64,000 nt of DNA from assembly GCA_963674745.2 (NCBI GenBank), contig CAXXDV010000001.1, positions 1,376,001-1,440,000 of the forward strand. Reading direction: 5' to 3'. The translations under genes were made by a program, and so were the position numbers. The notes below the pieces were generated by a model, which worked only from the letters and a program-made list of their open reading frames with translations, had not been told where the DNA came from and searched no databases. The stretch is from Desulfosudaceae bacterium (GTDB lineage: Bacteria; Desulfobacterota; Desulfobacteria; Desulfobacterales; Desulfosudaceae). This document shows positions 12,023 to 50,950 of the stretch, one piece after another (positions within the stretch are counted from its first letter, which is position 1; each line of letters opens with the position of its first letter).

Positions 12023-12106
12023 TCTCATGCTAAAGCTAGACTTCGGGTGACTGAAGGACGGAAAGCAACGGGTCTTTAGATTAAAGACAGCCGGGCCGCC
12101 ATGAGG
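12023..12106 (+). ncRNA. Cyclic di-GMP-I (GEMM-I) riboswitch aptamer
   Basis: P1 CTCATG/CATGAG; P2 CTTCGG-GTGA-CTGAAG (GNRA loop); junction GGACGGAAAG; P3 GGGTCT...AGACAGCCGGG, matching the deltaproteobacterial GEMM-I scaffold. Confidence 0.85.
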
Positions 12107-12117
12107 CAAAGAACTTC

Positions 12118-12160
12118 AAGCCGGGCTGTCTGGACAAAAAGACGGCCCGGCTTTTTTTGT
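12118..12160 (+). terminator. Intrinsic terminator, riboswitch expression platform
   Basis: AAGCCGGGCTGTCT-GGACAAAA-AGACGGCCCGGCTT followed by a T-tract. Confidence 0.85.
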
Positions 12161-12286
12161 TTTTGGGGGAGTGTTTCAACATACCAGAAAAGATTTACCA
12201 ACTGAACAACAACATTAAGACAAATTTATTGCCATTCCGGGCGAAAGGGGTGAAGACCAGCATGATAATATTGTAGAATATTACAA

Positions 12287-20096: not shown

Positions 20097-23000
20097 ATGA
20101 GGTCATCCCCCATGACGGCTTTGACTATCGACAAGAGATCGAAAATACGACAAAGACAAATACGCTATCGCCAGCTCATGATTCACATGATGATGGTAGT
20201 AATGATGCTGCCGGTGTTACTGGCCGGAACGCCTGACCTCTCTCTTGCCGCCACAACTGTCAGTGAACATATTCGGGCCAGCAAAACCTGGGACCTTTCC
20301 GGTAGCCCTTATATAGTCACTAATGAGGTATTTGTTTGTGACAACGCGAAATTAACCATTGTTGCCGGTGTTGTTGTTAAGTTTAACGCGGGTGCGAGCC
20401 TGAAGATTGGGTATAGCAGTACTTCCTGGGGCGCGCTTTCAGCCGTCGGTGAACAGGATAACCATATTGTATTTACTTCCAACGTCAGTCCGCAGAACCC
20501 CGGAGACTGGAAAGGGATATACTTCACCAGCGCCACAAGCAGTACTACCCAGCTTAATTACTGCACTATCGAATACGGCGGGCATACCAACAATGCCAAT
20601 CTCTATCTGGCTAATTCTGCTGCATTCTCCATAAGTGAAGTCATCGTCCAGAAGAGCAGTGGGCATGGAATATATATTAGTTATTCAAACCCTGTAATAT
20701 CTAACTGCCGGATAATTGATAACCAGTCTGATGGTATATATTGCGATAATGGTGAAGGCAGTACTGTCTATACTACGACAATAGCCGATAATTTGTTCGT
20801 GAACAATGGCGGCGCTGCTATCAATACCCGCGGATATATTAATTCAATAACCGGCAGCCAGGGATACGATAATGGCGTCAACGGAATATCGGTAAGAAGC
20901 GGTTATATTAGGGGAGACTGTACCTGGAGTGCTCAGGACCTGCCTTTTGTTGTCCAGGGGGATGTATCTATTATTAATAATAAAAAGCTAACAATTACCC
21001 CGGGAGCGATAATCAAATTTAACGCGGGAGCGGGCCTGAGGATTGGGTATAGCAGTACTTCCTGGGGCGCGCTTTCAGCCGTCGGTGAACAGGATAACCA
21101 TATTGTATTTACTTCCAACGTCAGTCCGCAGAACCCCGGAGACTGGAAAGGGATATACTTCACCAGCTCTACAAGCAGTACTACCCAGCTTAATTACTGC
21201 ACTATCGAATACGGCGGGCATACCAACAATGCCAATCTCTATCTGGGTTCTTCTCCGGCTGCATTCTCCATAGGCGATACAACCGAGGGTGAAGTCATCG
21301 TCCAGAAGAGCAGTGGGTATGGAATATATATTGGTGCTTCAAACCCCATAATATCTAACTGCCGGATAATTGATAACCAGTCTGATGGTATATATTGCGA
21401 TAATGGTGAAGGCAGTACTGTCTATACTACGACAATAGCCGATAATTTGTTCGTGAACAATGGCGGCGCTGCTATCAATACCCGCGGATATATTAATTCA
21501 ATAACCGGCAGCCAGGGATACGATAATGGCGTCAACGGAATATCGGTAAGAAGCGGTTATATTAGGGGAGACTGTACCTGGAGTGCTCAGGACCTGCCTT
21601 TTGTTGTCCAGGGGGATGTATCTATTATTAATAATAAAAAGCTAACAATTACCCCGGGAGCAATAATCAAATTTAACGCGGGTGCGGGCCTGAAGATTGG
21701 GTATAGCAGTACTTCCTGGGGCGCGCTTTCAGCCGTTGGTGAACAGGATAAACATATTGTATTTACTTCCAACGTCAGTCCGCAGAACCCCGGAGACTGG
21801 AAAGGGATATACTTCACCAGCTCTACAAGCAGTACTACCCAGCTTAATTACTGCACTATCGAATACGGCGGGCACACAAATAACGCCAACCTGTATCTGA
21901 GTAATGTCGCTTCCACCGTTCCTACCATTCAAAACAGCGACATTCGTGCCAGCAGTGATTCCGGGATTTATATAGCGACTTCAAGTCCCGTTATTTCCTG
22001 CAACAATATTATGGAAAATGTGGAAGGTATCCACTATGAATATGGTTCGGCTACTCCGACAATCGAAAATAATAATATCCTTGAAAACACAGGAATGGAA
22101 TTTTACGCAGGCACTGCCGTCACGATAGGCAGCAATTGGTGGGGACCGTCAGGTGATCCGGGTATTGTAGAGATAAGCGATAATGTGACCTATGGCGTTT
22201 TGGCTGAAATCGCATGCAACACCGGTGTGGTGGTGGATAATCCGCCCTATCCGCCGGCTAAGCCCAGTCCGGCCGACGGCGCCGGGGTGGCGATTTATGA
22301 GAACGGGGAATTGATTGATTTCACCACACTGTCATGGTCCTGTACCGACTATAACCCGGCAGATACGCCCGACCTGAATTTTGACGTGTATTTCGGCACG
22401 AACCCGGACGCGTTGCCTGAAGTATCTTCCGAACAGACAGACAATGCCTACACTGTTGCCAATTCCGGTCTTTCACTCAATACCACTTACTACTGGAAAA
22501 TCGTCGCCCGGGACAGCCAGGACAGCCTCGGCCGAATCATCTCCGGGCCGGTATGGTCGTTCACGACCAGTGGATACGCGCCGGCCAGGGTTACGAATCT
22601 GTCAATTGACGGCGTAGGTGACGGCAAGTCCGCCGTGCTCGACTGGGACGGTTACACCGACCCGCTGAATACCGTTATAGACCGGTTTGAGATTTATCAA
22701 TACGGAAGCACTTTTGATAAATTGGACTATGAAGATCCTGTAGCAGACCCGGTAAAAGTCGGCCAGGTCGAAGGCGATGTATTCACCTACCAGGCCGTCG
22801 ATCTTCAGCGCGGCAACACATACTATTTTGCCGTGGTGCCGGTTGATGAATTTAATAATTATTATACTGACGGCCTGACATCAGTTACGGGTACCCTTAC
22901 GGACGAGCAGGCCCCGGGTGAAGTAACCGATATTACAGTTGTCTCAGGGGCCAATCAACTGACATTCAACTGGACAGCGCCGGGTGATGATGACCTGGCC

Positions 23001-33673: not shown

Positions 33674-33750
33674 TAATGATTATATAGTCGGTTTGCCTTT
33701 TGCCCGAAATCTGATTTCGTATAGTAAATAAAATTTTATCAGGGATTAAT

Positions 33751-35672: not shown

Positions 35673-35794
35673 TTTCGCTCCCTATTATATCTGCATTTCA
35701 GGGGGAAACGCATAAAATCATAGACGTCCTCATTAGCCCCCCAAAGAAAAGGAAAACATATAAAAATAGGTGCTTAATCGGATAAGTTCATAAG

Positions 35795-37007: not shown

Positions 37008-37054
37008 ATTAGCCCTCAAGAAAAAATGAATATAAAAATGTAAAGATCAGTTAT

Positions 37055-37768: not shown

Positions 37769-37815
37769 GTTTCAAGCCCTCTATTTTTTCAATATCAATT
37801 TGCAATTAATTCTTA

Positions 37816-38454: not shown

Positions 38455-38664
38455 TACTTCGATGTGGGTTACCCCCGAAAGACCTGTTTTTTACCCCCCT
38501 TGTTTTGTTGGCTGTTGGAAATAAAACTGTTCTTTATGGGTTAAAGGGAAGGGGAGTTAAAAGATGCAGAAGCGCATCCATTCTATATGGTCGTTGGGCA
38601 AAAAAACCGTCACCCACTAACACACGAAAAAACCGGAGAAACGCATAAAAGCATGGACGTCCCC
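38441..38664. repeat. Cassette junction repeat R5 (near-identical to R2)
   Basis: About 224 bp matching 45103-45324. Confidence 0.92.
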
Positions 38665-39119
38665 TATTCGTTCCCTTTTTGTTCCAATGAAATAGCAGGA
38701 ATCTTTATGAATTTAATTTCGACATCACTATCATCAAAATTATTATCTAATTTTTTTATTTTGTACTCGATTTTACATGGATAGTACTCATCTAAAGAAA
38801 TTATTATTGTAATTTTTGATGGTAGTTTCCCACACCTGTCTCCCCATAAAGAAGGGCCTTTATATGTATTGAACTTATAATTTACTTCAAATGTGCCATC
38901 TTTTCTGCTAATTTCTGAATCACCATATTTATCCTTATCAAGAAATACGATTACCGAAGCATCTGATATCGAACAATCAATACAATCTCTATCTTTTGTG
39001 ATAACACTGCCAATTACTTTTATTGTTTCATAAGGACATTTTGGCATTGCTTTATCAACGAATAGCAGAGTAGACATGTTAATAAAAAATAAAGATAAAA
39101 TTATTTTTTTCATAGCCAT
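38664..39119 (-). CDS. Putative immunity protein of cassette 4 (exported, beta-sandwich-like)
   Basis: Signal peptide MKKIILSLFF; stop codon overlaps the GTCCCC boundary. Confidence 0.7.
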   Translation of the reverse strand: MAMKKIILSLFFINMSTLLFVDKAMPKCPYETIKVIGSVITKDRDCIDCSISDASVIVFLDKDKYGDSEISRKDGTFEVNYKFNTYKGPSLWGDRCGKLPSKITIIISLDEYYPCKIEYKIKKLDNNFDDSDVEIKFIKIPAISLEQKGNE

Positions 39120-39137
39120 CCTTCATATTACATTGTT

Positions 39138-39731
39138 TTATTTGCATTCACATGGGTTTCCATTTCCATATCCGAAACAGGATTTTTCACACGCTTCTGG
39201 CTTTGCTTCAGTAAAATGCCTACAACTATGCACCATCTCATGCAATATTGTGGACTTAAGAGGACCACAGCTGCTAATAGAGAAACCCGATCCACTGATA
39301 TAAATAGTATCTGAAAAAAGTGGTGCTGCATGACCACAATAGGATTTATTATCACACTTTATCTTAAGTTTAGCCCATTTATCTTTTAGACAACGTTTAA
39401 GCAAACCGTCCTTAATACAATTCGAATTAATAGCAACTGCGACATCAACCATAGCTCCATCAATTGCCGAAATATGACCTGAACAAGATTCATAGATCGC
39501 ATAAAGTCCTTTTTCATCAAAAATGGTCAATATATTATTTTGAGCATATACATATGTATTTAATGTGCTTGGTTTATCTATCGAATCAAACAATAAGAAT
39601 GGAATTTGCTGTTCCTCTGAATACAGATTATGGCTTGGATCAACCTTCAAGTACCTCCCCTTGCCCGGATCATAATACCTATTCCAATTATAATGTAGCC
39701 CCGTCTCTTGATCATAGTATTGGCCCGGATA
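39138..39731 (-). pseudogene. Orphan Rhs tip, cassette 4 (HExxH metallopeptidase-like)
   Basis: YPGQYYDQETGLHYNWNRYYDP...DEKGL; TIYI...STILHEMVHSC. Confidence 0.88.
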
Positions 39732-40029
39732 TATTCTGATGCGCCTTCCCCCCGAAAGACCTGTTTTTTATCCCCCTTGTTTTATCGGCCCCCAAGGTTC
39801 ACTTTAATATCAAAATTCGTGTATCTTCGTAATTCCGTGGCCCTGAAGGCAACCAGGCAGGCATATAAAAAATGCTCTCCCTCCTTATTCATGCCTGCCT
39901 GGGGGAGTTTTTTTGACCATAAGATTGACCTTATTCCCTATGGTCGTTGGGCAAAAAAACCGTCACCCACTAACACTCATAAAAAGAAAACAAATAAAAA
40001 TAGGCACTTAATTGAATAAGTTCATAAGT
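39718..40029. repeat. Cassette junction repeat R4 (A+B; distal part interrupted by the IS)
   Basis: Motif A at 39718, motif B at 39939. Confidence 0.88.
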
Positions 40030-41861
40030 GATTCCTGAGAAGTAACTCTGTAAATTCCGGCAGTAATTTGCTATAAAGCGTTATGTATAAACGGACTGAC
40101 CGCCAAAGACAACTATTCGGAATAGAATCGCAGCTGCCTGAGTCGTTACAAATACGTTTGAAAGAATCTTGGGCTCAGATTTTCAATCAAGAAATTCTTT
40201 CCATCTTGATGAACAACGAAGATCAATTTTCTCAACTGTATGGCACCACAGGACGGCCCAATTTCAGTGTGGCGCGTATGTTGGGTCTTTGTCTGCTGCA
40301 AGAACTAAACAATCTGAGCGATCAACAAGCCCTTGATGCATTTGGGTTTGACATCCGTTGGCGATATGCGTTGGATGTGGACGAACAGGATGCATACCTG
40401 TCTCGCCGATCACTTGTTGAGTTTCGCAGGCGTTTAGCTGCCAAAGATCCGGAGATGAGAAGTGTTCGCACCATCTTTGAGCAGATCAGCAAGGCAGCCA
40501 TTAAAAAGCTTGGCCTTTGCGCAAGCGACCAAAGAGTGGATTCTACTCATATCGTATCCAACATATGCACCCGTGGCCGGCTGGATCTGTTTAACAAAAC
40601 CATCAACCTGTTTCTTAAAAGCCTGACAGTGGCCCAGTATTCACGCGTCCCCCAATATATAGCAAATTGGCACCAGCAAGAATCAAACGGCTGGTTCGGA
40701 TTAGGGGCCGGTGAACGCAAGGCAGAGTTGAAGCAACTGGCAAAATACTTAAACAAACTTATTGTCATTTTTAAAAAAGACAAACAGGTAGCAGCCGACG
40801 AGCCTTATCAACTGCTTGTACGACTATTCAATGAGCAATGTGAAATCCCTTCGGGCGAATCCGGACAAGAGAACAAGGCCGACGAACAAATCAAAATTAA
40901 GAAAAAATGCACTGGCGAAACTCTGCAGTCTCCATATGACACCGATGCTTCTTACGGGCATAAAGGCAAGGGTTACAGTGTCCATATCACCGAGACGTGC
41001 AATAATCCGAAAAAGAAGGAAATCATTACCGACTACGAGGTGCATGGCGCAGCCCGGTCAGATGTAGCGAAAGCTCCGGATATTCTTGATCGATTGGAAG
41101 CAGCAGATTTAAAGCCGGAGACGTTTTTTGCCGACGGTGGCTATCCTTCAGTGCCTTCGGCGGTAAAGGTTGTTGAACGTAGTGTCGAGTTCATTGCCCC
41201 GGTAAACCGCAGCAAGCTGGCGGACGAAGTAATGGGGCGAGACCAATTTAAGTTCGACAAACAGGGACATGTATCGTATTGCCCGATAGGGCACCAACCG
41301 GTCGACCATCGGATGCTTAGCGCCAATAATAAAAAGGGCAAATCGCTATACGCGATTTTTGATGGTGATCTTTGTCGCAAGTGCAGCAAACTTGAACAGT
41401 GTCCGGTACGCGCGCCCAACCATCGCGAGCGTGGCTGCAGGCCACAGGATACAGTAGGCGACTTTAGATTGGAAATAACCGATGGTCTTCGCCTAAGAGA
41501 CCAAATGTTTGCGGATCAACGGACAAAAAGCTGGAAGGACCGTTATAAAATACGCTCGGGGATTGAGGCAACAATGTCGGAATTGAAACGAAGCCATGGA
41601 ATGGCAATGCTTCGAGTTCGCAAGCTGCCAAAAGTAAGCTTCGCTGTGGCATGTAAAGTAATAGCATGTAACATAAAACGCTGGGCCAAGGCCTATGCGC
41701 AGCCAAATCATGCGCATAGCCGCCTTATAAGCCAAACTTGGGGCCTAATACGGCAATCTACGCCTCGACTCGGAAGGATAAGGTCTATCTCCCGGTCAAC
41801 GGCCCGCCGAAAATTTTGTTGTGCAACCTGATGCAAAATGGGGGCTTACTTCTCAGGAATC
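40030..41861 (+). mobile_element. Complete IS, IS1182-like (1832 bp)
   Basis: Perfect 16-bp TIR GATTCCTGAGAAGTAA; 6-bp target duplication ATAAGT (40024-40029 and 41862-41867). Confidence 0.92.
40083..41831 (+). CDS. DDE transposase, IS1182-like
   Basis: GRPNF..LSDQQA..DIRWRYAL, QRVDSTHI, LQSPYDTDA, FADGGY, YKIRSGIEATMSELKR. Confidence 0.9.
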   Translation: MYKRTDRQRQLFGIESQLPESLQIRLKESWAQIFNQEILSILMNNEDQFSQLYGTTGRPNFSVARMLGLCLLQELNNLSDQQALDAFGFDIRWRYALDVDEQDAYLSRRSLVEFRRRLAAKDPEMRSVRTIFEQISKAAIKKLGLCASDQRVDSTHIVSNICTRGRLDLFNKTINLFLKSLTVAQYSRVPQYIANWHQQESNGWFGLGAGERKAELKQLAKYLNKLIVIFKKDKQVAADEPYQLLVRLFNEQCEIPSGESGQENKADEQIKIKKKCTGETLQSPYDTDASYGHKGKGYSVHITETCNNPKKKEIITDYEVHGAARSDVAKAPDILDRLEAADLKPETFFADGGYPSVPSAVKVVERSVEFIAPVNRSKLADEVMGRDQFKFDKQGHVSYCPIGHQPVDHRMLSANNKKGKSLYAIFDGDLCRKCSKLEQCPVRAPNHRERGCRPQDTVGDFRLEITDGLRLRDQMFADQRTKSWKDRYKIRSGIEATMSELKRSHGMAMLRVRKLPKVSFAVACKVIACNIKRWAKAYAQPNHAHSRLISQTWGLIRQSTPRLGRIRSISRSTARRKFCCAT

Positions 41862-41890
41862 ATAAGTTAAGAACGTCCCCTATTTGTCTC

Positions 41891-42715
41891 CTAAATCTTA
41901 ACTTTATTAGGAAGGTCTAATATCACTTCGGTTTTCAAATCTAAAACAGCATGTGGGAAAGATTTTCTTATAGTAAAGGTTTTCTTCAGAATGCCTACAT
42001 ATTTCGAAAAAGAATATATTTCTATAGTTGCATTTTCTTCCTTAAGATTAATGATTGGTTCCGGATTTATTTTTAGGGCATCGGCTTTCAATTGTTTTGG
42101 TATATACTCAGAGACAATGCGCGTTAACGTCTGCTTGTCACATATAATAGTAAGTTTGCTATAATTTTCATGGTCTGCCAATAAAAAACTGTCACCCATT
42201 AAATACAAAACAGCCAACTGAAAAAATCCCATTGGAGTACCGTCTGTTTTGACATATCGGATAAATCTTTTTTGTAGGATTTCAGCATAATCGGGATCTG
42301 ATTCATCCCAGCTACCTACCAAGGACGACCATATAGCACACGCTGTTTCAGAATCATATTCATTACGATTATTCTTTTTGGCATATATAATTGGTCTGCC
42401 ACTCATAGAAAAAAAGCAATAAAAATACTCTAACGAATAATCATTCAATATTGATAAACTGCCTAATATGTCAAAGTATTTATTTATATCTATTTTCATT
42501 TCTTTATTATTGTCTAATAATTCTTTCTCAAAAATAGTAAAGTATCCTTTCACTCCCAATTTTTCTAAAAATTCTTTTTGCTGATCTTCAATGCACATAG
42601 AAAAGTTATCAACTATTTCCTGATATTTCGATTTAGAAAACGAAAAAGATGAATCAATAAATATAATAGTAAAGATAGTTAATACTGTAAAAAATATAGC
42701 AAGAGTATTTTTCAT
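41891..42715 (-). CDS. Putative immunity protein of cassette 3 (exported)
   Basis: Start reassigned to MKNTLAIFF immediately after the tip 3 stop; signal peptide. Confidence 0.7.
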   Translation of the reverse strand: MKNTLAIFFTVLTIFTIIFIDSSFSFSKSKYQEIVDNFSMCIEDQQKEFLEKLGVKGYFTIFEKELLDNNKEMKIDINKYFDILGSLSILNDYSLEYFYCFFSMSGRPIIYAKKNNRNEYDSETACAIWSSLVGSWDESDPDYAEILQKRFIRYVKTDGTPMGFFQLAVLYLMGDSFLLADHENYSKLTIICDKQTLTRIVSEYIPKQLKADALKINPEPIINLKEENATIEIYSFSKYVGILKKTFTIRKSFPHAVLDLKTEVILDLPNKVKI

Positions 42716-42717
42716 TA

Positions 42718-43362
42718 TTATTCTCCCAGTGCATATCCATAAGTTGAATATTGTGCACCATATCCATAATCTCCATCTTCTGGCCTTTTGTTTTGGAACC
42801 AAGGGTATCCTACCTTTCTCAAATCAGGTCTTGTCCCCCCCTTGAATTCTGCAAAATGGCCAAACTCATGAATCAGAACATTTCCTCCCCACTCAGGATT
42901 ATTGTTTTTTAGCTTTGGGCTAAGAGTAATTGTATTAGTATTAGGGTCGTATTCCCCCGTTCCTCGAACATCACCAAAACGTACTATAGTGCCACTACAT
43001 TCTGCTGTTAATATTTCTTTTATATCCACATTAAATAAGTTGAAATAGTCAACACCATTTATATATTCCTTTTGTCGGTCCATAAACCATTTCTCTGCTC
43101 TGGGATTATAATCTATATTTTGCATTATGTTATTAATATATCCTTTTATTATTGCTTTTTCATTTTCATCATTTGTTCCGTATAAAATTAGTCCTAATTG
43201 ATCAATATTAAAGACAGGATTATTATCCACATACAAATAATAATTAATCCCACCGCTCAACCTAATCGGATCCTCCCTCAAATACCTCCCAGACCCAGGC
43301 TCATAATACCGCCACATATTATAGTGCAGCCCCGTCTCACTATCAAAGTATTGGCCCGGATA
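42718..43362 (-). pseudogene. Orphan Rhs tip, cassette 3 (HExxH zincin-like)
   Basis: YPGQYFDSETGLHYNMWRYYEP...DQLGL; GEYDPNTNTITLS...VLIHEFGH. Confidence 0.88.
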
Positions 43363-43491
43363 TATTCTGATGCGGGTTCCCCATAAAGACCTGTTTTTTA
43401 CCCCCCTTGTTTTGTTGACCCCCGGATGAACTCTTTTCTCAAGATATGATAGTTTACCTTTCAAATCAAACGATCTGTGGCAGTTAAAAAA
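43349..43491. repeat. Cassette junction repeat R3 (long form of A)
   Basis: Matches 46277-46417 through ...TTTACCTTTCAAATCAAACG...CAGTTAAAAAA. Confidence 0.88.
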
Positions 43492-43791
43492 GAAAACAAA
43501 TCGGGTGAAAGCGGCTCCAATATGCCGGAGATGATCCGCTGCCATTTTTTGGGCAGACCGGCGTAGATGGTTTTCAACCGTTCCCGACGAGCTTCGTATT
43601 CCAGGCAAATATTTTGTACGGCAGGACTCGAAGCCACGGCGGAACAAACATCACAACCATCTTACCCGCACGGCCACAGGCGAGGTCGGCCGGCAGAATG
43701 GGGGCGCTTTTCGGGGGCGTCTCCGTCCCCTAAGTCGTTCCCATGTTGGCTTGGTGCGCCCCCATTTGACAGTTAGTCTATTTTGTCCCCC

Positions 43792-44577
43792 TCAGTTAGG
43801 GCTACATATTTCAAGTGGGGGTTTGTGGAGTTCTGTAAAAATTGGGGGGAATATATCATCTTGCGTACCACATAAACCATCTTTACCTTTTGAACCTAAA
43901 AAATAAAATACACTTCCACTCTTATATATAAAACTATGGCTCCATCCATCTATAACTAAATTTGATTCGAAATTATTGTTTTCAGTTTTTAATTCCATTA
44001 AATCAACTGGATATTTCCCTTTGGTGTTGAAAAAATTTTTTAAATGTTTCTGAATATTATATAATTTGACCTTTGTTAAACTTATTGGATCAAGCTCAGA
44101 GTACTCGTACCCATAAGGAATTTTATAACAAATATGCTCTATTATAAAAACAATCCGTTCATTTCTTTTTTGTCTAATCAAATTGATATTTTGTTCATTC
44201 GGCATTTCATCATGTATAGCTTCAGCCAACATTTTTCTTCTTAAGAAGGGTAAAGAGGAATCCCCCTTCTCAATTATGGCTTTCGTAATAATTTCCATAG
44301 GGGTCTCGCCCAAATAAAAATCCAAAAGATCTACTAATAATTCTGAGGATTTAATACTTTTAAGCCCACTTAATTCATCAAGCGAATTATAAAATATATT
44401 GATATCTTTTTTACTATATATATTTGTTTTTAAAATATTTTTTAGTAAAAAACATATTTCCTTTTCCTCTTTGTATTTTTGTAATAAATCGTTTCTTCCA
44501 TCAATATTCGCGGCTTCTAAAAATCCGCTTAGACTAATAGAAGCTAAAAACATAAAAACAATAATTCTTACTATCAT
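43792..44577 (-). CDS. Putative immunity protein of cassette 2 (exported; C-terminal GspG/pseudopilin-like motif)
   Basis: ATGA overlap with the tip 2 stop; GKYPVDLMEL...DGWSHSFIY...SKGKDGLCGTQDDI. Confidence 0.7.
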   Translation of the reverse strand: MIVRIIVFMFLASISLSGFLEAANIDGRNDLLQKYKEEKEICFLLKNILKTNIYSKKDINIFYNSLDELSGLKSIKSSELLVDLLDFYLGETPMEIITKAIIEKGDSSLPFLRRKMLAEAIHDEMPNEQNINLIRQKRNERIVFIIEHICYKIPYGYEYSELDPISLTKVKLYNIQKHLKNFFNTKGKYPVDLMELKTENNNFESNLVIDGWSHSFIYKSGSVFYFLGSKGKDGLCGTQDDIFPPIFTELHKPPLEICSPN

Positions 44578-45116
44578 TTGACCACCAGTGTTCCGCCTTT
44601 ATCTTTTGTTAGGCAATATATTAAAGTTGACAAGTTCTTATTCACAGAAATACATCCTATGTTCTTTTGACCAGCACCATGAATGAAAAATTCTGTTCTT
44701 CCGTGTGCTTTATGGCCATTGGGTTTTAGGTATGCCCATTTTGGGTGTTTAGATATCCAACCAGGAGTATATATTTTCCAATTGCCTGTCGGTATTGGGC
44801 CGCCTACTTTTTTTTCTGAACTTTCTTTTCCATCCCCTGAAAAGGCTGATGAAGAAAAATTACAACATTTTTTGTCATTAGTATTAAAGGTACATACGAG
44901 TGTGCCATTTGTACCCGCACCTCGTGTATATGTACATGAAGCTAACCCTTTGTTATCAAAGAAAATAGCCGGATTGATATTGGCATAAAAATAAAGATTA
45001 ATCCCACTTTCAAATCCCACTGGATCAACCCTCAAGTATCTCCCGATCTCAGGATCATAATACCTATTCCAGTTATAATGCAGCCCGGTCTCATCATCGT
45101 AGTATTGGCCCGGATA
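44574..45116 (-). pseudogene. Orphan Rhs tip, cassette 2 (Tlde1/DUF2778-like L,D-transpeptidase fold)
   Basis: AFSG...GPIPTGNWKI...RTEFFIHG-x5-IGCI. Confidence 0.85.
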
Positions 45117-45325
45117 TATTCTGATGCGGGTCCCCCCCGAAAGACCTGTTTTTTACCCCCTTGTTTTGTTGGCTGTTGGAAATAAAACTGTTCTTTATGG
45201 GTTAAAGGGAATGGGGTTAAAAGATGCAGAAGCGCATCCATTCTATATGGTCGTTGGGCAAAAAAACCGTCACCCACTAACACACGAAAAAACCGGAGAA
45301 ACGCATAAGAGCATAGACGTCCCCC
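45103..45325. repeat. Cassette junction repeat R2 (A+B+C)
   Basis: Near-identical to 38441-38664. Confidence 0.92.
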
Positions 45326-45333
45326 GGTAACAA

Positions 45334-45747
45334 CTATTTCCCAGGCATAAAACTTAAATAGATTGGTGGGCCTTCATTATATGAATGTAGAAATATTTTA
45401 ATAGTTGCAACTTGATACAGTTCTTTAAACATGAAGTAAAAAACTGGATAATTATAGCCATTTTCCGATGGATTATATGTTCCATCAAATTTAAATATTT
45501 CTTTATCTGTAATAATTGAGCAACTTACTTTATAATGAGTCGTTTGTTTTTGACTTATTTCCCTCTCGTTAAATGCTAATACATACGGACCGCCATATAT
45601 TAAAGGAGTAGTAATTATATTCTCTCCCTCCTTTAATTTTTTTTCAATAGGGTCAATAAATATTATATGCTTCAAAGACCAAAAAACAAAACCGACTATT
45701 ATTAAAATTATGACTAGAGAAAGGCTACTTATTATTTTTATATTCAT
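45334..45747 (-). CDS. Putative immunity protein of cassette 1 (N-terminal TM)
   Basis: Downstream of tip 1; MNIKIISSLSLVIILIIVGFVFW. Confidence 0.7.
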   Translation of the reverse strand: MNIKIISSLSLVIILIIVGFVFWSLKHIIFIDPIEKKLKEGENIITTPLIYGGPYVLAFNEREISQKQTTHYKVSCSIITDKEIFKFDGTYNPSENGYNYPVFYFMFKELYQVATIKIFLHSYNEGPPIYLSFMPGK

Positions 45748-45774
45748 TTCGACGGCCTCGAATAATTTCTAGAC

Positions 45775-46287
45775 TTATAATTCCGGATAAATTAGCCACC
45801 AAGGAGTTGGGTCTTTAAGGCCACATGTTATGAATGCTTTTCGAACTTTGACTCCACAAGTGTCGAATAGTGTAATTGCGCCACTCGGGCCATTATTTAC
45901 TAAACATGTTTCAATTTCGCTCCAAGGCCTTACATCACATTCATCCTCTCTCTCAGCAGGATAACAGTGAGCATGTCCACTTTCATATTTATTGGGTTCT
46001 GCTGGGGCACTCAATTTTTGTCCATTACTTAATTTGATAAAAGCATGCCATAGTACAGCAAGTTCTCCCATTTTCTCATTATGACCCATCATTGGACGAT
46101 AGCAGGCTATAGGTCGAAGGCCAAAGGCATCACTGTTGTTTATGGGATTATTAAACGCATACAAAAACAGAGTAATCCCTCCATTTAACCCGATCGGATC
46201 AACCCTCAAGTATCGTCCAATTTTAGGATCATAATATCTGTGTCGGTTATAATGCAGCCCCGTCTCACTATCAAAATATTGGCCCGG
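45775..46287 (-). pseudogene. Orphan Rhs tip, cassette 1 (possible permuted papain-like fold)
   Basis: PGQYFDSETGLHYNRHRYYDP...DAFGL; CYRP...WHAFI...DTCG..V..A...CGL. Confidence 0.85.
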
Positions 46288-46417
46288 CTATATTCTGATG
46301 CGGGTCCCCCCCGAAGACCTGTTTTTTATCCCCTTGTTTTGTTGGCCCGTAAGAAGGCTTTTCTAAAGATATGGCAATTTACCTTTCAAATCAAACGGTT
46401 TGTGACAGTTAAAAAAA
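46277..46417. repeat. Cassette junction repeat R1, contiguous with the recombinase 3' flank
   Basis: Motif A copy about 200 bp downstream of the recombinase stop. Confidence 0.88.
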
Positions 46418-46618
46418 TCAGGATTACTTTTTACTAATAAGTCGGGTATGCTCTATACATAAAATGCAATTAGGAAAATATAAAATCTTGTGATAATGGG
46501 GTACCACAAAGATTATTAACCTTGCTTTATGTCTAAAGGATTTTAGCCCCATTAGTAACTGCCGGATTCGGGCAGCGTGCTGGTATTGCGGGGTTCATAT
46601 TGCCGGGCTGAGGGACGG

Positions 46619-47545
46619 CTATCGGCCGGATGCAACTTCGGAAGGGTGATACTTGCTGTGGACTTCTTTAAGGTCGTTGATGGTGACACGGGTATAAAGC
46701 TGGGTAGATTCTAATGACTCGTGGCCCAACATCTCCTGCAGATGCCGGATCGGCGCACCGTTTCTCAACATGTGCGTGGCGCAGGTGTGCCTGAACGTGT
46801 GGGTGGAGACGTTTTGTTTGATGCCTGCCATGCGTGCGCAGCGTTTGACAATGGCCCAGATGCCGTTGGGGTTCATCTTTTTTCCCCAGCGGTTTAAGAT
46901 CAGGTGGCCGTTGTCGTGGCCTTTTATCCAGGCGGGCCGGACCATCAGGATATAGTTTTCCGCCAGGCCGCACACCCGGCGGCTCATGGGCACGACCCGG
47001 TCTTTATCGCCCTTGCCGTGGACCAGGGCATAACCGGAGGTAAGGTCAAGATCGGACAAGTGCAGTCCGGCCAGCTCAGAACGCCGGATGGCCGTGTCAT
47101 AGAGGATTTCAAGGACGAGCCGGTCCCGGTTACCGTTATTGGTGCGCGTGTCCGGAGCGGCCATGAGCTTTTGGATGTCATCGGCGCTCAGGATGACCCT
47201 GGGCAGGCGTCGGGGTTTTTTCGGCAGTTGCAGGGCTTCGCCGGGATCATAGACAAGATAATCTTGTTTCTTTAAAAACCGGGTAAAACCTTTGACTGTG
47301 CCTAACATCTGAGCCTGGGTCCGCAAGGACAAAGGCTTGTCGGCGGCTGTATGACGGAACGCCAGGTCCTGCTGGTATTCGTACAGGATGTCACGATTCA
47401 GGGCGTCAAGGTTTACTGCCTGTTCCTGCGCCAGGAACCCGGCCATGTCTTTCAGCCCGTATTTGGCCCCCCGGATGGTGTAATAAGACCGGCCCAGGGC
47501 CTTTAAATGGTTGAGGTAAACCGGTATCAGTTCAGTGATGGTCAT
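46619..47545 (-). CDS. Tyrosine recombinase (XerC/D-like), second of the pair
   Basis: YDTAIRRSEL, GKGDKDR, HTFRHTCATH, LGHESLESTQLY; full catalytic set. Confidence 0.95.
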   Translation of the reverse strand: MTITELIPVYLNHLKALGRSYYTIRGAKYGLKDMAGFLAQEQAVNLDALNRDILYEYQQDLAFRHTAADKPLSLRTQAQMLGTVKGFTRFLKKQDYLVYDPGEALQLPKKPRRLPRVILSADDIQKLMAAPDTRTNNGNRDRLVLEILYDTAIRRSELAGLHLSDLDLTSGYALVHGKGDKDRVVPMSRRVCGLAENYILMVRPAWIKGHDNGHLILNRWGKKMNPNGIWAIVKRCARMAGIKQNVSTHTFRHTCATHMLRNGAPIRHLQEMLGHESLESTQLYTRVTINDLKEVHSKYHPSEVASGR

Positions 47546-48450
47546 GGTTGCTCCTGGTTCGGATGGGTTTTGTCATGGATTTGCTTAACTTCTCGCGGCA
47601 TTATTTTGGTATAGGCCTGGGTGGTTTTAAGGCTTTTGTGGCCCAGGAGCTCCTGGATATGGCGGATGTCGGCCCCGTTCTGCAACAGATGGGTGGCGCA
47701 GGTCCGGCGCAGGGTGTGCGGGGACACGCTGGTTTTAATGCCCGCCTGATCACGATACTTGACCAGCAGGCCCCTGACGCTAGCCGGTGTCATGGCCCGG
47801 CCGGTGATAAGCAGAAAAAGCCGTCTTTCTTTCGGGTTCTTTTTAGCGTAACAGGGCCGGATTTTTTCCAAATACGCTTTGACCCCTGCAGCGGCTGTTT
47901 TGCCCAGGGGTACCACCCGCTGACGTCCGCCTTTGCCATGGCGGATGTACAGCACGTCCTCTATTAAATCCACATGATAAATCTCAAGGCACAACAGCTC
48001 GTTTAACCGGATACCGGTGGAGTAAAGCACTTCCATGACGGCCCGGTCCCGGATATGGGTTTTTAAGGACAGGTTGGGCTGTTCAAGGAGCTTTTTCATC
48101 TCAGCCATGGTCAGCACAGGTCCGATGCGTCGGTGTCTGCGGCAGGTCTCAATAATACCCTCGGTGGGACTGATCAGCAACCGGTGATTTTCTTCCAAAT
48201 GCTCAAACAACCGTTTGACGGCCCGGATTTTCAAGGCTCTGGTCTCCATAGCCACGACCTGGGCCATAACATAAGACTGATAATCAAGCATGACTTGCCG
48301 GGTAACCTGTCTTAGATCGCTAATATTATTTCTGGTCAGCCAGGCCGCGAACTGGTCCAGGTTTTTTCTGTATATCTCGATTGTGGCCGGAGCATAGCCC
48401 CTGACTCTTAGTTGCTGCTTGAACTCGGCTATAGTTACGACGACCTCCAT
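47542..48450 (-). CDS. Tyrosine recombinase (XerC/D-like), first of the pair
   Basis: YSTGIRLNEL, GKGGRQR, HTLRRTCATH, LGHKSLKTTQAY; start set at MEVVV after a purine-rich RBS; ATGA coupling to the next gene. Confidence 0.95.
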   Translation of the reverse strand: MEVVVTIAEFKQQLRVRGYAPATIEIYRKNLDQFAAWLTRNNISDLRQVTRQVMLDYQSYVMAQVVAMETRALKIRAVKRLFEHLEENHRLLISPTEGIIETCRRHRRIGPVLTMAEMKKLLEQPNLSLKTHIRDRAVMEVLYSTGIRLNELLCLEIYHVDLIEDVLYIRHGKGGRQRVVPLGKTAAAGVKAYLEKIRPCYAKKNPKERRLFLLITGRAMTPASVRGLLVKYRDQAGIKTSVSPHTLRRTCATHLLQNGADIRHIQELLGHKSLKTTQAYTKIMPREVKQIHDKTHPNQEQP

Positions 48451-48488
48451 AAGCACCCCCTCTCTCTCCGCTGTTTCTTGCTCCACAA

Positions 48489-48587
48489 CCTCGTAGTCGT
48501 TCGGTTTGTGTCTTAACATCAGATGGTTAAGTGCCATTTTGACAGCCCTCGTTGTTCCCTCGTAGTTGCCCGAATTACCCTCGTAGT
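48489..48587. repeat. Four short direct repeats CCTCGT(A/T)GT
   Basis: Copies at 48489, 48547, 48558 and 48579. Confidence 0.7.
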
Positions 48588-50950
48588 CGGCTACTCTTCT
48601 CTTGTTTCATGAGTTTTTTTATTTCTTCGATCGGCGTCAGGTTTAAATAAAACCGGGTGATGTCTTCTCCCTGGCCCTTGTAATTTAAAGCATAGGCATA
48701 CTCCTTGCCCCTGGCACCGAACCGGACAAGCAGATATTCCAGGTCCTCAAGCTGGCTGATGTGGGCGCGGATCTGCCAGTCCGTCCAATTGATGGCTTCT
48801 CTGATCTGCCGCCGGGTAAAAAAGACCTCATCTACCGGGATCCTTTGTTTTTTGGATATGTCCATAACCATGCGATAGATGCCGTCAAGCAGTATCCGGG
48901 AAGGCCGGACCAGCTCGTCCAGGCTCTGACCCAGGACGTCATTGGCCAGGACATTGGCTTTGTTAATATCATCTAGAGTAACCTCGATGTATTCCACGGC
49001 CTTGCCGTCCGCCTGCACGGTCCTGGTCTGTCTCTGGTACTGATGCAAAAAGGCAATGGCCTCGATCAGGCCCAGGTATTTGTCATGGTCCCTTCGGCTG
49101 ATAAGCGATTTTGTGGGATAGGACAGGTACGGCGTAAAAGGGTTGACCACGGCCACGGGCTTTAACATCTGCTGGGCGATCTGGTGGATACGTTCAATAT
49201 GGGTTGATTTGGTCCGGTTGACAAGGCCCTCCAAAGTCCGGGCCTGCTTCTGCTTGTCGTGGATGGCGGCCGTCATGGATTCTGATTCGTCTATTGAAAG
49301 AAAGATAAACCGGGAAGCTGTCTCGGCTTCAATGTCGGCTGCCGTGGTGGTCAGCATGACCGAGACCGGGCCTTCCACGGTATAGGTTTCTGTTTTCATC
49401 TTGCCGGTGCCCGGGTCTTTCCCGGTCGCGGCAACTCTGATCCGGCCTTCTGACTGGATATTTCTTATGGAATAGGCAGCCCCGCCCACGCCCGCCTCCT
49501 CCTCGATGGCCAGGATTTTATGCTTTAATGATCCTTCTTCCTTGTAAAAAAGGGCCTGATCGGTCACGCGGGTGTATTTTTCTTGATGGCTTTCCGGAAC
49601 AAAGCGGAGGATGGCGTTCTGTAATGTCGATTTACCGGCCCCGCTTCGGGACTGGATCAGGGTGGACAAGGGCTTTGCCAGAAGCCGGGACACGGCCGTC
49701 AAATAACAAACAATCTTGTTGGTTTCTTCGCCCACAATGCCCATGACCAGCAAGGCGTCAAGGATTTCTTTAAACATGTCCGGAGATTTTAAAAATTTTT
49801 CTGCGGCGGTCTTTTCTGTCTGGCTGGGCTCAAGGGGTTTGGTTTCCTGGGCTTTGGGCTGGAAGTTTTCCACCAGGGTCAGGAGTTTGCCGATATCTTC
49901 TTTTGCCAGCTCCTCGGCCGCGCCGAACAGGTCGGCGCAGAGTTTCGCAAACCACAGCCGGGACCGGGAAGAATAAAGATCAATGGTGGTCAGCTCAAAA
50001 GGCAGGTTGCTCTCAACGTCGGCAGATGCCTTGATCACGGCTTTTAGCTGGGTCTCGCCGCGCTGTATGCCCTTGACGTGGTATTGTCGTTTTCCGTATC
50101 CCACGATAAAGCCCTGTTGCGTATGCTTGTAGATGGTCTTTTTGCGGGGATGGACATAATCGGAGTGTTCCAATGCTTTCGGGTTGACCTGATTCAGTAG
50201 GGCCTCGAACTGCTCGGGGGTATGCCGCTTAAAGTAGATGGTAACATCTTTAACGGGCAGCTCAATAGCATAAGGCGTGACCTGTGCTTCTTTTAGCTGC
50301 AAGGACACGATTTGTGCTGTTTTGCGACCTTTGTCGTCACCGCTAAAGACCAGGTAGGCGTCTTTTATCCTGCCCTTGCAATAAGAAAGATGATCAGCGG
50401 TAATGCCGTTGGCGTCGTACAGGGGCATGACTTTTTTAAATCCTTGATCGTAAAGAACTAAAGCGTCAATGACCGTTTCTGTCAGCAGGATCGTCTGGGA
50501 ATGCTTGACAGCCCGGGTATTAATCAGGCCGGAACATCGGCCTGGCAGGTATAAATGGGGCTGTTCGGAGGCTTCGTCTGTTTTGCGGCCGTACAGATTG
50601 ACCACGGCCCCGGTTGTATCGTACAGCGGGAAGACCACGCAGTTTAAAAAGCGTTCCTTGCTTTTGGTGTTCAGGATGCCGATGGTTTTTAAATCAGCGA
50701 TAATTTTGTCATCATCCGGCAGGGTGGAAGGTAATGTGCCATTGACGTAGCCGGCGCCAAAGTCCCTTAAGGATTTGTTTTTATTTATGTTCCGGACGTT
50801 TTTCAGGTAGTCCAGCCCTAGGGCGGTCTTTTCAAACGTATGCTGATAATAGGCGACCACGCGCGCCAAAAGCTTTTTTTCTCTGACGGTCAGGGGGATG
50901 GAGTCGTTGTTTGTAACTTTGATGCGATCTGCGCTTTTTTGTTCTATCAT
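48575..50950 (-). CDS. DnaG-like primase/TOPRIM plus P-loop ATPase (helicase-like) fusion of a mobile element; start uncertain
   Basis: ERFLNCVVFPLYD..G.VVNLYGR, HLYLPG, LTETVIDAL, Walker A SRSGAGKS, Walker B LAIEEE. Confidence 0.85.
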   Translation of the reverse strand: MIEQKSADRIKVTNNDSIPLTVREKKLLARVVAYYQHTFEKTALGLDYLKNVRNINKNKSLRDFGAGYVNGTLPSTLPDDDKIIADLKTIGILNTKSKERFLNCVVFPLYDTTGAVVNLYGRKTDEASEQPHLYLPGRCSGLINTRAVKHSQTILLTETVIDALVLYDQGFKKVMPLYDANGITADHLSYCKGRIKDAYLVFSGDDKGRKTAQIVSLQLKEAQVTPYAIELPVKDVTIYFKRHTPEQFEALLNQVNPKALEHSDYVHPRKKTIYKHTQQGFIVGYGKRQYHVKGIQRGETQLKAVIKASADVESNLPFELTTIDLYSSRSRLWFAKLCADLFGAAEELAKEDIGKLLTLVENFQPKAQETKPLEPSQTEKTAAEKFLKSPDMFKEILDALLVMGIVGEETNKIVCYLTAVSRLLAKPLSTLIQSRSGAGKSTLQNAILRFVPESHQEKYTRVTDQALFYKEEGSLKHKILAIEEEAGVGGAAYSIRNIQSEGRIRVAATGKDPGTGKMKTETYTVEGPVSVMLTTTAADIEAETASRFIFLSIDESESMTAAIHDKQKQARTLEGLVNRTKSTHIERIHQIAQQMLKPVAVVNPFTPYLSYPTKSLISRRDHDKYLGLIEAIAFLHQYQRQTRTVQADGKAVEYIEVTLDDINKANVLANDVLGQSLDELVRPSRILLDGIYRMVMDISKKQRIPVDEVFFTRRQIREAINWTDWQIRAHISQLEDLEYLLVRFGARGKEYAYALNYKGQGEDITRFYLNLTPIEEIKKLMKQEKSSRLRG

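Follow-up and report, generated by a model that had tools for sequence, protein, structure and literature searches.

An array of orphan Rhs toxin ends in a Desulfosudaceae bacterium, read as the work of a recombinase-bearing integrative element

The window considered here, a stretch of 64,000 nucleotides from a Desulfosudaceae genome, contains a giant rhs gene and, facing it on the opposite strand, six orphan Rhs toxin ends (tips) that lie beside two tyrosine recombinase genes and a primase-helicase gene. With a probability of about 0.6, an accretion array has been built here by integrative elements of one family, 8-9 kb in size, and the window shows its older portion on the downstream side. 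Their backbone comprises a primase-helicase, two recombinases, an XRE repressor and a 102-aa protein. Going by its sequence, we read the array as the outcome of repeated site-specific insertion at the end of the rhs core, followed by decay of the inserted backbones.

The rhs gene, the facing tips and the recombinase module

The product of the main rhs gene carries the RHS core-end domain PF03527 at aa 3922-3957, and a homology break in the gene falls exactly 5' of CCGGGCCA (P-G-Q-Y); the conserved stretch of the proposed attachment region extends to the DPxG..DPxG cleavage motif. The toxin end currently fused to the core, tip 0, shares 39% identity with orphan tip 1 (E 4e-22). It is followed by an antisense gene for a 289-aa protein with a hydrophobic, signal-peptide-like N-terminus and a paralogue at C1:2265657, and then by a copy of repeat A, at which the cargo behind tip 0 ends. 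The features of the locus, by position in the window, are:

20097..32558 (+): main rhs gene, encoding a giant protein of 4153 aa (beta-helix, fn3, RHS repeats)
31998..32170 (+): putative attachment region within rhs, homologous to the inverted tips
32160..32558 (+): tip 0
32804..33673 (-): gene of the 289-aa protein, in the position expected of an immunity gene
33734..33811 (+): repeat A copy, same orientation as rhs
35403..35798 (-): array end, a half REP and then a remnant RayT/IS200-like Y1 transposase gene (MPRKARIDTPG...)
35795..36827 (-): cassette 1, start-less tip 1 (36827-36279) and downstream gene (36328-35795)
37055..38451 (-): cassette 2, tip 2 (38451-37816) and 237-aa gene (37768-37055)
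38664..39728 (-): cassette 3, tip 3 (39728-39138, HEMVH motif) and 151-aa gene, its product with a lipoprotein-signal-like N-terminus
40083..41831 (+): DDE transposase gene, part of an insertion sequence now lodged in the array
41891..43359 (-): cassette 4, tip 4 (43359-42718, HEFGH motif, weak metallopeptidase matches) and downstream gene (42715-41891)
43792..45113 (-): cassette 5, tip 5 (45113-44574, Tlde1 match below threshold) and 261-aa gene
45334..46287 (-): cassette 6, tip 6 (46287-45775, stop codon immediately before PGQY) and 137-aa gene
46619..47545 (-): rec2, XerC/D-like tyrosine recombinase, 308 aa
47542..48537 (-): rec1, XerC/D-like tyrosine recombinase
48575..50949 (-): DnaG-type primase fused to a P-loop helicase, likely start ATG at 50949

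The six tips are convergent with the rhs gene and all begin at the same PGQY codons. A 223-nt repeat is present in six minus-strand copies that are 61-83% identical (36704-36926, 38328-38550, 39605-39827, 43236-43458, 44990-45212 and 46164-46386), each encoding PGQY..RYYDP..GRY..DP and followed by a tail that is different in every case. Three of the copies match positions 31998-32170 of rhs in inverted orientation (73-74% over 117-173 nt), and the copy nearest the recombinases does so with 93% identity over 41 nt. Repeats D1-D5 are also present in the array, and its G+C content is low, 0.34-0.42 over 32-46 kb compared with 0.51-0.53 in the recombinase genes. The original prediction had recognized the giant rhs gene facing six tips with their cassettes, and correctly so; it had further called all six tips start-less, which is true of five that have no in-frame ATG, GTG or TTG between the upstream stop and PGQY, but the reading frame of tip 4 extends upstream by 97 open codons, among them four candidate starts.

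The recombinase and primase-helicase genes lie upstream of the tips on the same strand. As had been proposed, the two recombinases appear to be coupled and catalytically intact: their genes overlap by 4 nt and, when aligned to XerD (1a0p), both have identical residues at the R, K, H-x-x-R, H and Y motif positions, which we take to be catalytic. Their best model matches are XerD and XerC, at 226-274 bits, under the cut-offs of those models. The predicted primase-ATPase gene is likewise present, upstream and co-oriented, but it is not intact and lacks a zinc-finger part of approximately 100 aa found in its relatives. In full copies the primase is preceded by the repressor and 102-aa genes, both of which are missing here, and the primase gene of the window abuts a housekeeping gene; no inverted repeats were found at the presumed breakpoints of the window locus. 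The element copy in the window is defective, and it was probably separated from the rhs core by a later rearrangement.

Element remnants between cassettes and an exact junction

A conserved repeat had been noted in front of each cassette. This holds for the leader 14-mer AAAAAACAGGTCTT, which precedes all six tips, and not for repeat A (core GTGGGTGACGGTTT), which precedes four of them and was not found before tip 6 or tip 4. Alignment to the element of genome G002, the coordinates of which are used for all element positions quoted, revealed that the inter-cassette DNA of the window consists of both element ends with the middle deleted. The window spacers and those of a second array of this genome on contig C3, which has no recombinase, align to both ends, with irregular inner endpoints at 1266, 1364 or 1600 on the left and at 8063, 8109, 8135 or 8141 on the right. 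The window spacers are:

36828..37030 (-): repeat A (element 1239-1266) joined to the leader (8109-8198)
38452..38687 (-): repeat A, a 126-nt block in common with 45199-45324, leader
39729..40032 (-): repeat A with the left-end hairpin (element 1231-1364; fold z -3.4), then leader
43360..43791 (-): left non-coding remnants (element 1376-1448 and 1567-1600), 110 nt with no match, then the post-rec2 end and leader (8063-8198)
45114..45347 (-): repeat A, the shared 126-nt block, leader
46288..46618 (-): element right end from the rec2 stop to the junction, leader included

The change from leader to PGQY occurs at the same base in 12/12 leader-type tips from three genomes, these being nine from the present genome together with a divergent tenth, one from G002 and one from G006. 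The switch from core to PGQY falls on that same base in one classical G002 orphan with a short core stretch and in all three main rhs genes that were compared. The boundary between leader and PGQ was seen in G000, G002, G003, G006, G158 and G532. With two or fewer mismatches, the 22-base junction has eight occurrences in the present genome, and its reversed control has none in 401 genomes; chance is excluded. Within the family, the junction 22-mer is present in 4/13 genomes, which are precisely the holders of the primase, and in 0/9 of the others. Across the order, 5/11 junction-bearing genomes have no primase match at E<=1e-60, a point against the accretion reading.

Distribution and flanks of the element family

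At E<=1e-60, the primase has matches in 19 genomes out of 401 from the order and in 3 out of 401 from a phylum sample, the present genome being included in both counts, and the primase is also present in a Planctomycetota MAG; related contigs are assigned to Desulfobacterales, Thermodesulfobacteriota and Planctomycetota. Every copy examined has exactly two recombinase genes. Recombinase-in-trio (RIT) elements have three tandem tyrosine recombinase genes, and assignment to them was rejected on this count. A test set in advance, whether such modules adjoin Rhs sequence elsewhere, turned out in favor of a dedicated element that carries the recombinases and is linked with Rhs tips through a single defined site of the Rhs core: Rhs sequence lies 3' of rec2 on the same strand in 14/20 evaluable copies from 10/15 genomes, figures in which related genomes are not independent samples and one positive copy (G027) was scored with a pattern added after its sequence had been viewed. 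The six copies with no Rhs sequence after rec2, a point against accretion, are those of G073, G086 (two copies), G282, G355 and G664. The adjacency occurs three times within the present genome, where the background is 16 such Rhs motif matches in 5.55 Mb.

On the other side of the backbone, an Rhs end is found upstream of the primase in 8/16 copies with at least 2.9 kb available, and six of these eight ends are attached to a true rhs core, which places the element in the first position behind the main gene. Rhs sequence of the PGQY or GYRYY type borders both flanks in G002, G158 (two copies), G144 and the tandem copy at the C3 locus of this genome, in the order rhs core, tip and immunity gene, backbone, leader, older tip; in these copies, rec2 and the downstream Rhs sequence are 136-1060 nt apart. 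The tip arrays of G002, G158, G144 and the C3 locus are co-oriented with their own rhs genes, and the decayed copies are the distal ones (the window; G158 copy 2). A second subfamily in the present genome has a related leader and a rec1 63% identical to that of the window, and joins at GYRYY codons of a different Rhs family.

The recombinase beside one end, direct target repeats at both ends and the same insertion point in independent hosts are features that the family shares with site-specific integrative elements. In tRNA-targeting islands and P4-like satellites, an integrase likewise stands at one end, the 3' end of the target is duplicated and a primase-helicase serves replication; these restore the same gene end, whereas the element described here would install a different, functional toxin end. 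The tycheposons of Prochlorococcus (10.1101/2020.12.28.424599), as portrayed in the available part of that report, also combine a tyrosine recombinase with primase/helicase genes in an integrative element; each new integration at the shared site moves the earlier elements further inward, and an island grows from degenerate remnants and repeated partial target sites. Tycheposons target a tRNA gene and carry metabolic or defensive genes. The element described here is flanked by rhs coding sequence, and its cargo would replace the coding end of a toxin gene.

Proposed route of accretion and its alternatives

A full element runs from tip and immunity gene through repeat A, a non-coding region, the XRE/RstR-like repressor on the opposite strand, the 102-aa protein gene and the primase-helicase to the two recombinases and the leader. 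Its circular form would bear an attachment site composed of leader and PGQY tip, and the recombinase pair would recombine this site with the corresponding PGQY codons where an rhs core ends. The incoming start-less tip would then be fused to the core and expressed, while the previous tip would come to lie behind a leader with an in-frame stop as a silent orphan; further insertions would push older cassettes downstream, and older backbones would be lost through internal deletion, with repeat A and leader left as scars. Gene order, flanks, exact boundary, scars and co-occurrence are observed in the sequences; what we infer is that recombination takes place, at which point crossover occurs, and that a circular intermediate replicates. 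Exchange was not observed in the assembled contigs of three runs, which yielded no excised circle, empty site or alternative junction, or in 13 family genomes, which yielded no excised circle or empty target site; among the latter, none of the window or G002 cargo tips recurs, and no cassette was found in both states. It also speaks against accretion that the window array faces its rhs gene instead of following it, as do the housekeeping gene next to the primase and the lack of inverted repeats at the presumed breakpoints. More tentatively, deleted derivatives consisting of tip, immunity gene, repeat A and leader might be non-autonomous cassettes that the XerC/D-like pair moves in trans, besides the autonomous element. 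The system would in that case act as a protein-fusion integron. A silent start-less end could then be plugged into the end of a giant rhs gene at one codon and armed, and toxin repertoires, within a genome as well as between genomes, would be reassorted through site-specific and not homologous recombination.

Were the backbone alone mobile, it might home into the spacers of repeat A and leader in arrays built otherwise, with the tips as mere neighbors. Tips on both flanks would be expected in that case as well, leader-type junctions are present in the five genomes with no detectable primase and in the recombinase-free C3 array, and the motif TTTTTTAACYG of the left non-coding region recurs immediately behind rec2. 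Such homing nevertheless seems unlikely to us, as it leaves the single-base cut and the leader at every orphan unexplained and intact copies stand first behind a true rhs core in six of eight cases; nor are the spacers one uniform empty site, because the element-internal DNA they retain varies in amount and the 110 nt of one spacer type has no counterpart in the G002 copy. Quite improbable is an integron-like platform, on which a fixed recombinase pair captures circular start-less cassettes beside rec2 or swaps them into rhs in trans. A row of six cassettes co-oriented with the recombinases, five of them with start-less tips, and one privileged expression position do recall integrons; the low G+C of the cassettes, the recurrence of a few spacer types with different tips in two arrays and the likeness to rAID-1 (10.1101/471110, in its available part) point the same way. 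Against integron membership, there is no IntI-type integrase, the NCBIfam integron integrase model giving 105-133 bits with a cut-off of 265, and repeat A and leader fold on both strands no better than shuffles (z = 0.41, 0.65, -0.35, 0.17), with no attC-type hairpin in this range of -0.35 to 0.65. A tip, moreover, would be expressed by being fused as protein to the rhs core, and not through a promoter. It is the whole module that moves, with repressor and replication gene, into different rhs genes and genomes, and the C3 array has no recombinase at all. Neither the integron-like character of the original prediction nor a stationary capture platform is supported; the array looks like a product of serial integration and decay.

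A shufflon-like switch, also part of that prediction, would reversibly swap the expressed toxin by inversion between the PGQY region of rhs and the inverted tips. The two share inverted repeats of 41-173 nt, and an opposite-strand joint was encountered at 32079/46205 and 32081/46203 in contigs of two runs of one sample at a depth of approximately 10. This lone joint is explained by a paralogous tip, since a tip on contig C3 (2406175) resembles rhs to the left of the joint and tip 6 to the right, and its own contig yields the joint; the exact chimeric 40-mer was not found in the genome. Shufflon segments, bounded by short inverted repeats within the 3' end of one gene, occur in both orientations, whereas all six tips lie on one strand, inverted only relative to rhs, and the arrays at the C3 locus and in G002, G158 and G144 are co-oriented with their rhs genes, making such a switch scarcely credible. 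Classical Rhs orphans keep variable core lengths, and orphan clusters with C-terminal displacement were reportedly described by Jackson in 2009. An ordinary cluster of this kind with a mobile element beside it by chance would agree with the textbook view that orphan clusters form by recombination (PMC3150448, PMC3967940), and two classical orphans in G002 retain a short core stretch. New ends of polymorphic toxin genes and orphan toxin-immunity arrays have mostly been put down to homologous recombination. The main rhs gene, the pairs of start-less tip and immunity gene, the shared core-end sequence and the role of toxin reservoir are common to both, as far as the accounts at hand describe them. 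The classical orphans, however, have variable core stretches attributed to homologous recombination, whereas the leader-type tips break at a one-base boundary preceded by element DNA; co-orientation downstream of the main rhs gene is observed at the C3 locus and not in the convergent window. With this exact boundary, spacers made of element pieces, and adjacency in 10 of 15 genomes and three times in one, we hold a chance association to be very unlikely.

Association of recombinases with Rhs loci was already known but is not known to have been explained, and a search of the literature did not find the tip-installing mechanism. Recombinase or integrase genes adjoining polyimmunity and Rhs loci were reported, with a suggested role in gathering or transfer, by Zhang et al. 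(2012; PMC3482391) and Steele et al. (2017; PMC5727410), in passing and, in the available sections of both papers, with no element boundaries, target site or mechanism. The closest comparison in layout comes from the recombinase-associated acquired interbacterial defence arrays (rAID-1) of Bacteroidales, the structure of which was considered by their authors to be suggestive of active acquisition (Ross et al.; 10.1101/471110; PMC12247911). As set out in the available part of that work, an XerD-like recombinase, by definition at least 44% identical to a Bacteroides fragilis reference, heads a co-oriented, low-G+C array of short conflict genes with a repeated intergenic sequence, and the present locus too has at least two co-directional downstream genes with G+C <=41% and intergenic repeats. 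Close homologues of the rAID-1 recombinase are confined to Bacteroidales (10.1101/471110), whereas relatives of the present module occur in Desulfobacterales, Thermodesulfobacteriota and Planctomycetota. In place of one recombinase and no primase there are two recombinases and a replication module; cassettes keep their toxin tips, whereas rAID-1 arrays hold orphan immunity genes; and whole copies lie inside rhs genes, whereas the available text on rAID-1 gives neither a mechanism nor a target within a toxin gene.

If the accretion reading is true, a defined mobile element installs new toxin ends at a defined site, and the coding end of a weapon gene becomes a new kind of target for integrative elements. 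Site, two enzymes and intact donor copies are at hand, making the question directly testable. Accretion would also explain why spare tips are silent until fused to a core, and how stored arrays of spare toxin ends arise.

The Rhs region of the window

Re-examination of genes and motifs upheld the arrangement seen in the original prediction, in which a giant rhs gene faces six Rhs tips that follow a primase gene and two recombinase genes. The principal features are as follows.

12287-13213, plus strand: transglutaminase-like gene, the first of four genes in a row
After the transglutaminase-like gene, plus strand: 1941-aa gene with many Ig-like domains
Between the Ig-like gene and rhs, plus strand: rhodanese gene
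20097-32558, plus strand: rhs gene of 4153 aa, with beta-helix, fn3 and RHS repeats and a core-end domain at aa 3922-3957
40083-41831: DDE insertion sequence, splitting the cassette array
47545-46619, minus strand: rec2, tyrosine recombinase
48537-47542, minus strand: rec1, tyrosine recombinase, overlapping rec2 by 4 nt

From high to low coordinates, the order on the minus strand is primase-helicase, rec1, rec2 and then six cassettes, each composed of an Rhs tip (tips 1 to 6) and one or two small genes. The tips start at PGQY, continue through RYYDP..GRY..DP and end in tails that differ between them. No in-frame start codon precedes PGQY in five of the six; a TAA lies in frame 13 codons before PGQY in four start-less tips, and a stop codon stands immediately before it in tip 6. 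Hints of toxin domains from Pfam were confined to sub-threshold matches for tips 4 and 5. The G+C content of the array is 0.34-0.42, that of the recombinase and primase genes 0.51-0.53. Both recombinases align to XerD, and their best model matches are XerC/XerD, with the integron-integrase model scoring far under its cut-off. Judged from sequence, the coupled recombinases appear intact at their catalytic motif positions, as had been claimed, but the primase, which probably begins at the ATG at 50949, is without its zinc-finger part.

The end fused to the main rhs gene (tip 0) has its closest relative in orphan tip 1 (39% identity). No co-oriented gene adjoins tip 0, and no relative of the tip-1 partner gene was found beside it; at the position expected for the immunity gene of an expressed tip, a secreted-looking 289-aa protein is encoded antisense (32804-33673, minus strand), which has a 73% identical paralogue at 2265657 on contig C1 of the same genome. 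Genes of apparently the same kind precede both giant rhs genes of this genome (window 12287-20009; contig C3 2426051-2429995), and a 274-aa frame and a long frame of 1035 aa or more occupy the same position upstream of the C3 gene. These shared upstream genes hint at a conserved delivery operon, with no obvious type VI genes nearby.

Anatomy of the element and its co-occurrence with Rhs sequence

The full anatomy is seen on one contig and one strand of G002, which belongs to the same genus. An Rhs protein of 1453 aa that has ten matches to RHS repeats and ends in ...NNLRF|PGQYYD is followed, after its core, by tip A, a small gene, repeat A (the repeat at the left end of the element, behind the cargo) with a hairpin, and a non-coding stretch of high G+C. 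Next come an RstR-like repressor gene, on the opposite strand to the rest of the element, a 102-aa gene, an 890-aa primase-helicase containing a zinc finger, the recombinase genes rec1 and rec2, and finally the leader, the conserved non-coding DNA that abuts |PGQYYD of tip B. Tip B carries an SLT domain and has a small gene behind it; beyond this unit lie a classical orphan keeping approximately 50 nt of core and then housekeeping genes. Other genomes repeat the backbone order, as do short MAG contigs, one of them labelled Planctomycetota. At E<=1e-60, the primase was detected in 19 of 401 genomes of an order sample and 3 of 401 of a phylum sample (the window's own genome being included in both); a metagenome scan yielded one short contig, and the viral contigs scanned with the primase alignment gave no match.

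The genome of the window consists of three contigs totaling 5.55 Mb. C3 carries an rhs gene of 4454 aa with four leader-type tips downstream on its strand, one of them truncated by an inserted IS66 element. This array shares its leader and repeat A with the window and contains no recombinase gene. The C3 array terminates at an intact IS200-like Y1 transposase gene, the window array at a remnant of one. Near the end of C3 are two tandem primase-rec1-rec2 modules with a repeat unit of 9248 bp (97.4% identity over the 2.4 kb comparable before the contig end), each with a start-less Rhs-like tip (GYRYYS.E.GRW..RDP) immediately behind it, then a second gene and repeat A. At the end of C2 is an Rhs/YD protein of 938 aa that shares this GYRYY sequence; behind it, a tip, a small gene and repeat A lead into the left non-coding region of the element, which runs up to the contig end. 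Both contigs stop within element DNA (C2 131627 and C3 2720852), in orientations linking the C2 rhs to the C3 tandem elements; we infer that they join there through an unassembled link, and the gap is probably a collapsed backbone copy.

Rhs sequence was found downstream of rec2, on the same strand, in 14 of 20 judgeable copies (10 of 15 genomes), and the adjacency of module and Rhs tips anticipated by the original prediction was borne out across genomes to this extent. Of the 26 rec2 copies found, those judged were 17 in which the contig continues for at least 1200 bases beyond rec2 and three with a junction near a contig end; six were left out. Nine of the positives have the core-end motif within 2.5 kb of rec2, including G027, for which the pattern was added after its sequence had been seen; two (G239 and G144) have Pfam matches to RHS in the reading frame that follows, and three have a junction or tip at the contig end (two copies in G003, one in G532). 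The background of this motif is 16 matches in the 5.55 Mb of the window's genome, 15 of which are Rhs ends described here. The six judged copies with no Rhs sequence downstream are those of G073, G086 (two copies), G282, G355 and G664. In G086 (loci L041/L042, C2:4318000-4357999), several primase copies are split by group II intron-type reverse-transcriptase genes, a DDE transposase interrupts one rec2, and the element copies do not adjoin Rhs sequence. An IS200-like Y1 transposase gene replaces rec1 and rec2 at G282:C17 (L039, 13425-14438), with an rhs fragment behind it.

On the other flank, an Rhs end lies upstream of the primase start, on the same strand and 1.3-5.0 kb away, in half (8/16) of the copies that had at least 2.9 kb of upstream sequence, among 27 primase matches. 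It is joined to a real rhs core in six of these (G002, G294, G664, G158 copy 1, G144 and, less surely, G100) and is the leader-type tip of a tandem neighbour in the other two. Rhs sequence flanks the element on both sides in five copies, namely those of G002, G158 (two) and G144 and the C3 tandem copy of the window's genome. The upstream tip of G144 has a phospholipase A2-like domain, and the frame after its rec2 (G144:C36, L049, 10108-13347) encodes an Rhs fragment of 1080 aa that matches RHS repeats 13 times; because of this fragment, the G144 subfamily may join much further upstream in rhs, or may have displaced much of the rhs gene.

The junction boundary and the scars between cassettes

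Every PGQY site of the window's genome was aligned together with the G002 and G006 loci. Before CCGGGCCA stands core sequence (...AACCTGAGGTTC) in three main rhs genes and one short-core classical orphan of G002, and all 12 leader-type tips have ...GCATCAGAATATAT or a close variant there; the changes from core to PGQY and from leader to PGQY fall at the identical base in all sites aligned. Both element contigs of G003 terminate in the leader|PGQY junction, and the switch also falls immediately before PGQ in G158 and G532, whose rec2 shares only 58-59% identity with the G002 protein. The 22-base junction (up to two mismatches) occurs in 4 of 13 family genomes, which are exactly the four holders of the primase, and in 11 of 401 order genomes, six with the primase and five without; a reversed control pattern gave zero matches in any genome. 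In a second subfamily, with a rec1 63% identical to that of the window and a rec2 58% identical to that of G002 (84% for the window), a related leader, ...GGGGGGTCAAAAAACAAGC...GTTGTAATATCT, meets the joint at GGTTACAGATACTA, approximately 16 codons deeper into Rhs sequence, in agreement with the 938-aa protein of C2. The exact position of the boundary may have been passed on with the element's own attachment site, and therefore the 12 tips do not represent 12 independent events. An apparent, imperfect inverted symmetry was noted around the boundary.

Alignment of the window minus strand to the G002 element revealed that every inter-cassette stretch consists of the left and right ends of the element with the middle missing.

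Inter-cassette stretches of the window, in positions of the G002 element
Before tip 1: left piece 1239-1266; right piece from 8109
Before tips 2 and 5: left piece 1232-1266, then a shared 126-nt block; right piece from 8141
Before tip 3: left piece 1231-1364; right piece from 8135
Before tip 4: left pieces 1376-1448 and 1567-1600, then 110 unmatched nt; right piece from 8063
Before tip 6: whole backbone from 3691 onward; right-piece start not applicable

The recombinase-free C3 array has joints of the same kinds. As aligned, the irregular inner endpoints are better explained by deletion from full copies than by a single empty site of uniform structure; the finding that a few joint types recur with different tips would also fit a spread of deleted derivatives as non-autonomous cassettes. 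The 110-nt block (window 43497-43610; C3 2411545-2411660) reads as the final 35 codons of a gene, stop included, and has no relative in any locus retrieved.

Repeat A is composite, and its first half is REP-like, GGGGACGTC.ATG.TTTTATGCGTTTC, with units at the following positions.

Window: 35705-35754, 36981-37030, 38638-38687 and 45298-45347
C3: 1554618, 1557515, 1591993 and 1590312

Elsewhere in the genome, this unit forms perfect hairpin pairs and lies directly 5' of RayT/IS200-like Y1 transposase genes. Repeat A and the leader fold no better than shuffled sequence; a strong hairpin (z = -3.4) is present in the extended left end of the element.

Proposed exchange of rhs ends

Evidence from reads came from Logan contigs of three runs of one study. 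The junction variants foreseen by the original prediction did not appear in these contigs or in 13 family genomes; neither a circle nor an empty site was found in the contigs, nor an empty site in the genomes. When the orphan cassettes of G002 and the whole window array were compared with the 13 genomes, no cassette was found in both states, the matches being to shared site and spacer DNA only. An opposite-strand joint (32079/46205), considered as an inversion, is most simply a contig of the orphan tip at C3 2406175 (L002 1000-1185), a mosaic whose first 90 nt resemble the main rhs of the window and the next 60 nt tip 6; its mosaic start misled read mapping. The remaining contig joints in the three runs lie within dispersed repeats, and no weight was given to the incomplete coverage of run X3 or to its loose ends. 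The mosaic tip itself suggests past recombination inside the conserved PGQY-to-DP stretch.

The window array is convergent with its rhs gene, not behind it. Behind tip 0, the antisense 289-aa gene is accompanied by a copy of repeat A in the orientation of rhs, and this region resembles the left portion of an element, the rest of which is now inverted. Given that the left and right flanks of the region are non-syntenic in the complete genome G007, where they lie 1.8 Mb apart, the window site has been rearranged, and its convergent layout is probably the product of some rearrangement. Inversion was considered as the origin of this layout and set aside, there being no inverted repeat at the presumed breakpoints.

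In the openly available text of earlier reports, a XerD-like recombinase heads the low-G+C orphan immunity arrays of Bacteroidales known as rAID-1, with repeated intergenic motifs (10.1101/471110; PMC12247911), XerC/D genes adjoining polyimmunity loci are remarked upon (PMC3482391), and integrase-like genes near Rhs loci of bee gut bacteria are suggested to help possibly in capture, a matter deferred to further work (PMC5727410). Tycheposons, as described in the text available, follow the same pattern as that proposed here, new arrivals displacing older units, at tRNA genes (10.1101/2020.12.28.424599). An element with the present genes, a target at the rhs core end or a toxin-tip cargo was not found in the openly available literature searched.

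It is proposed that the element excises as a circle, whereupon the leader would meet its own cargo tip, and that the primase-helicase may allow the circle to replicate. The XerC/D-like pair would recombine the leader|PGQY site with an rhs gene at its PGQY codons; the formerly silent cargo tip would then form the new end of the Rhs protein, with its own immunity gene behind it, and the old tip would remain behind a leader with an in-frame stop. Newcomers would land beside the core, and older units would be pushed downstream as their backbones decay, a step that fits the position of intact copies first and the broken state of distal ones (window and G158 copy 2). G007, which has tandem full-length YD genes and neither the element nor leader-type orphans, fits this model as a single case. 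From the original prediction, a dedicated recombinase element at the Rhs core site is retained on the strength of the 14 of 20 copies, but the integron-like wording is not, given the integrase score. Integrative elements that swap rhs ends and build orphan arrays are considered the best explanation, with a probability of approximately 0.6, and we file the element as a site-specific integrative element for which the end of a polymorphic toxin gene is both target and cargo.
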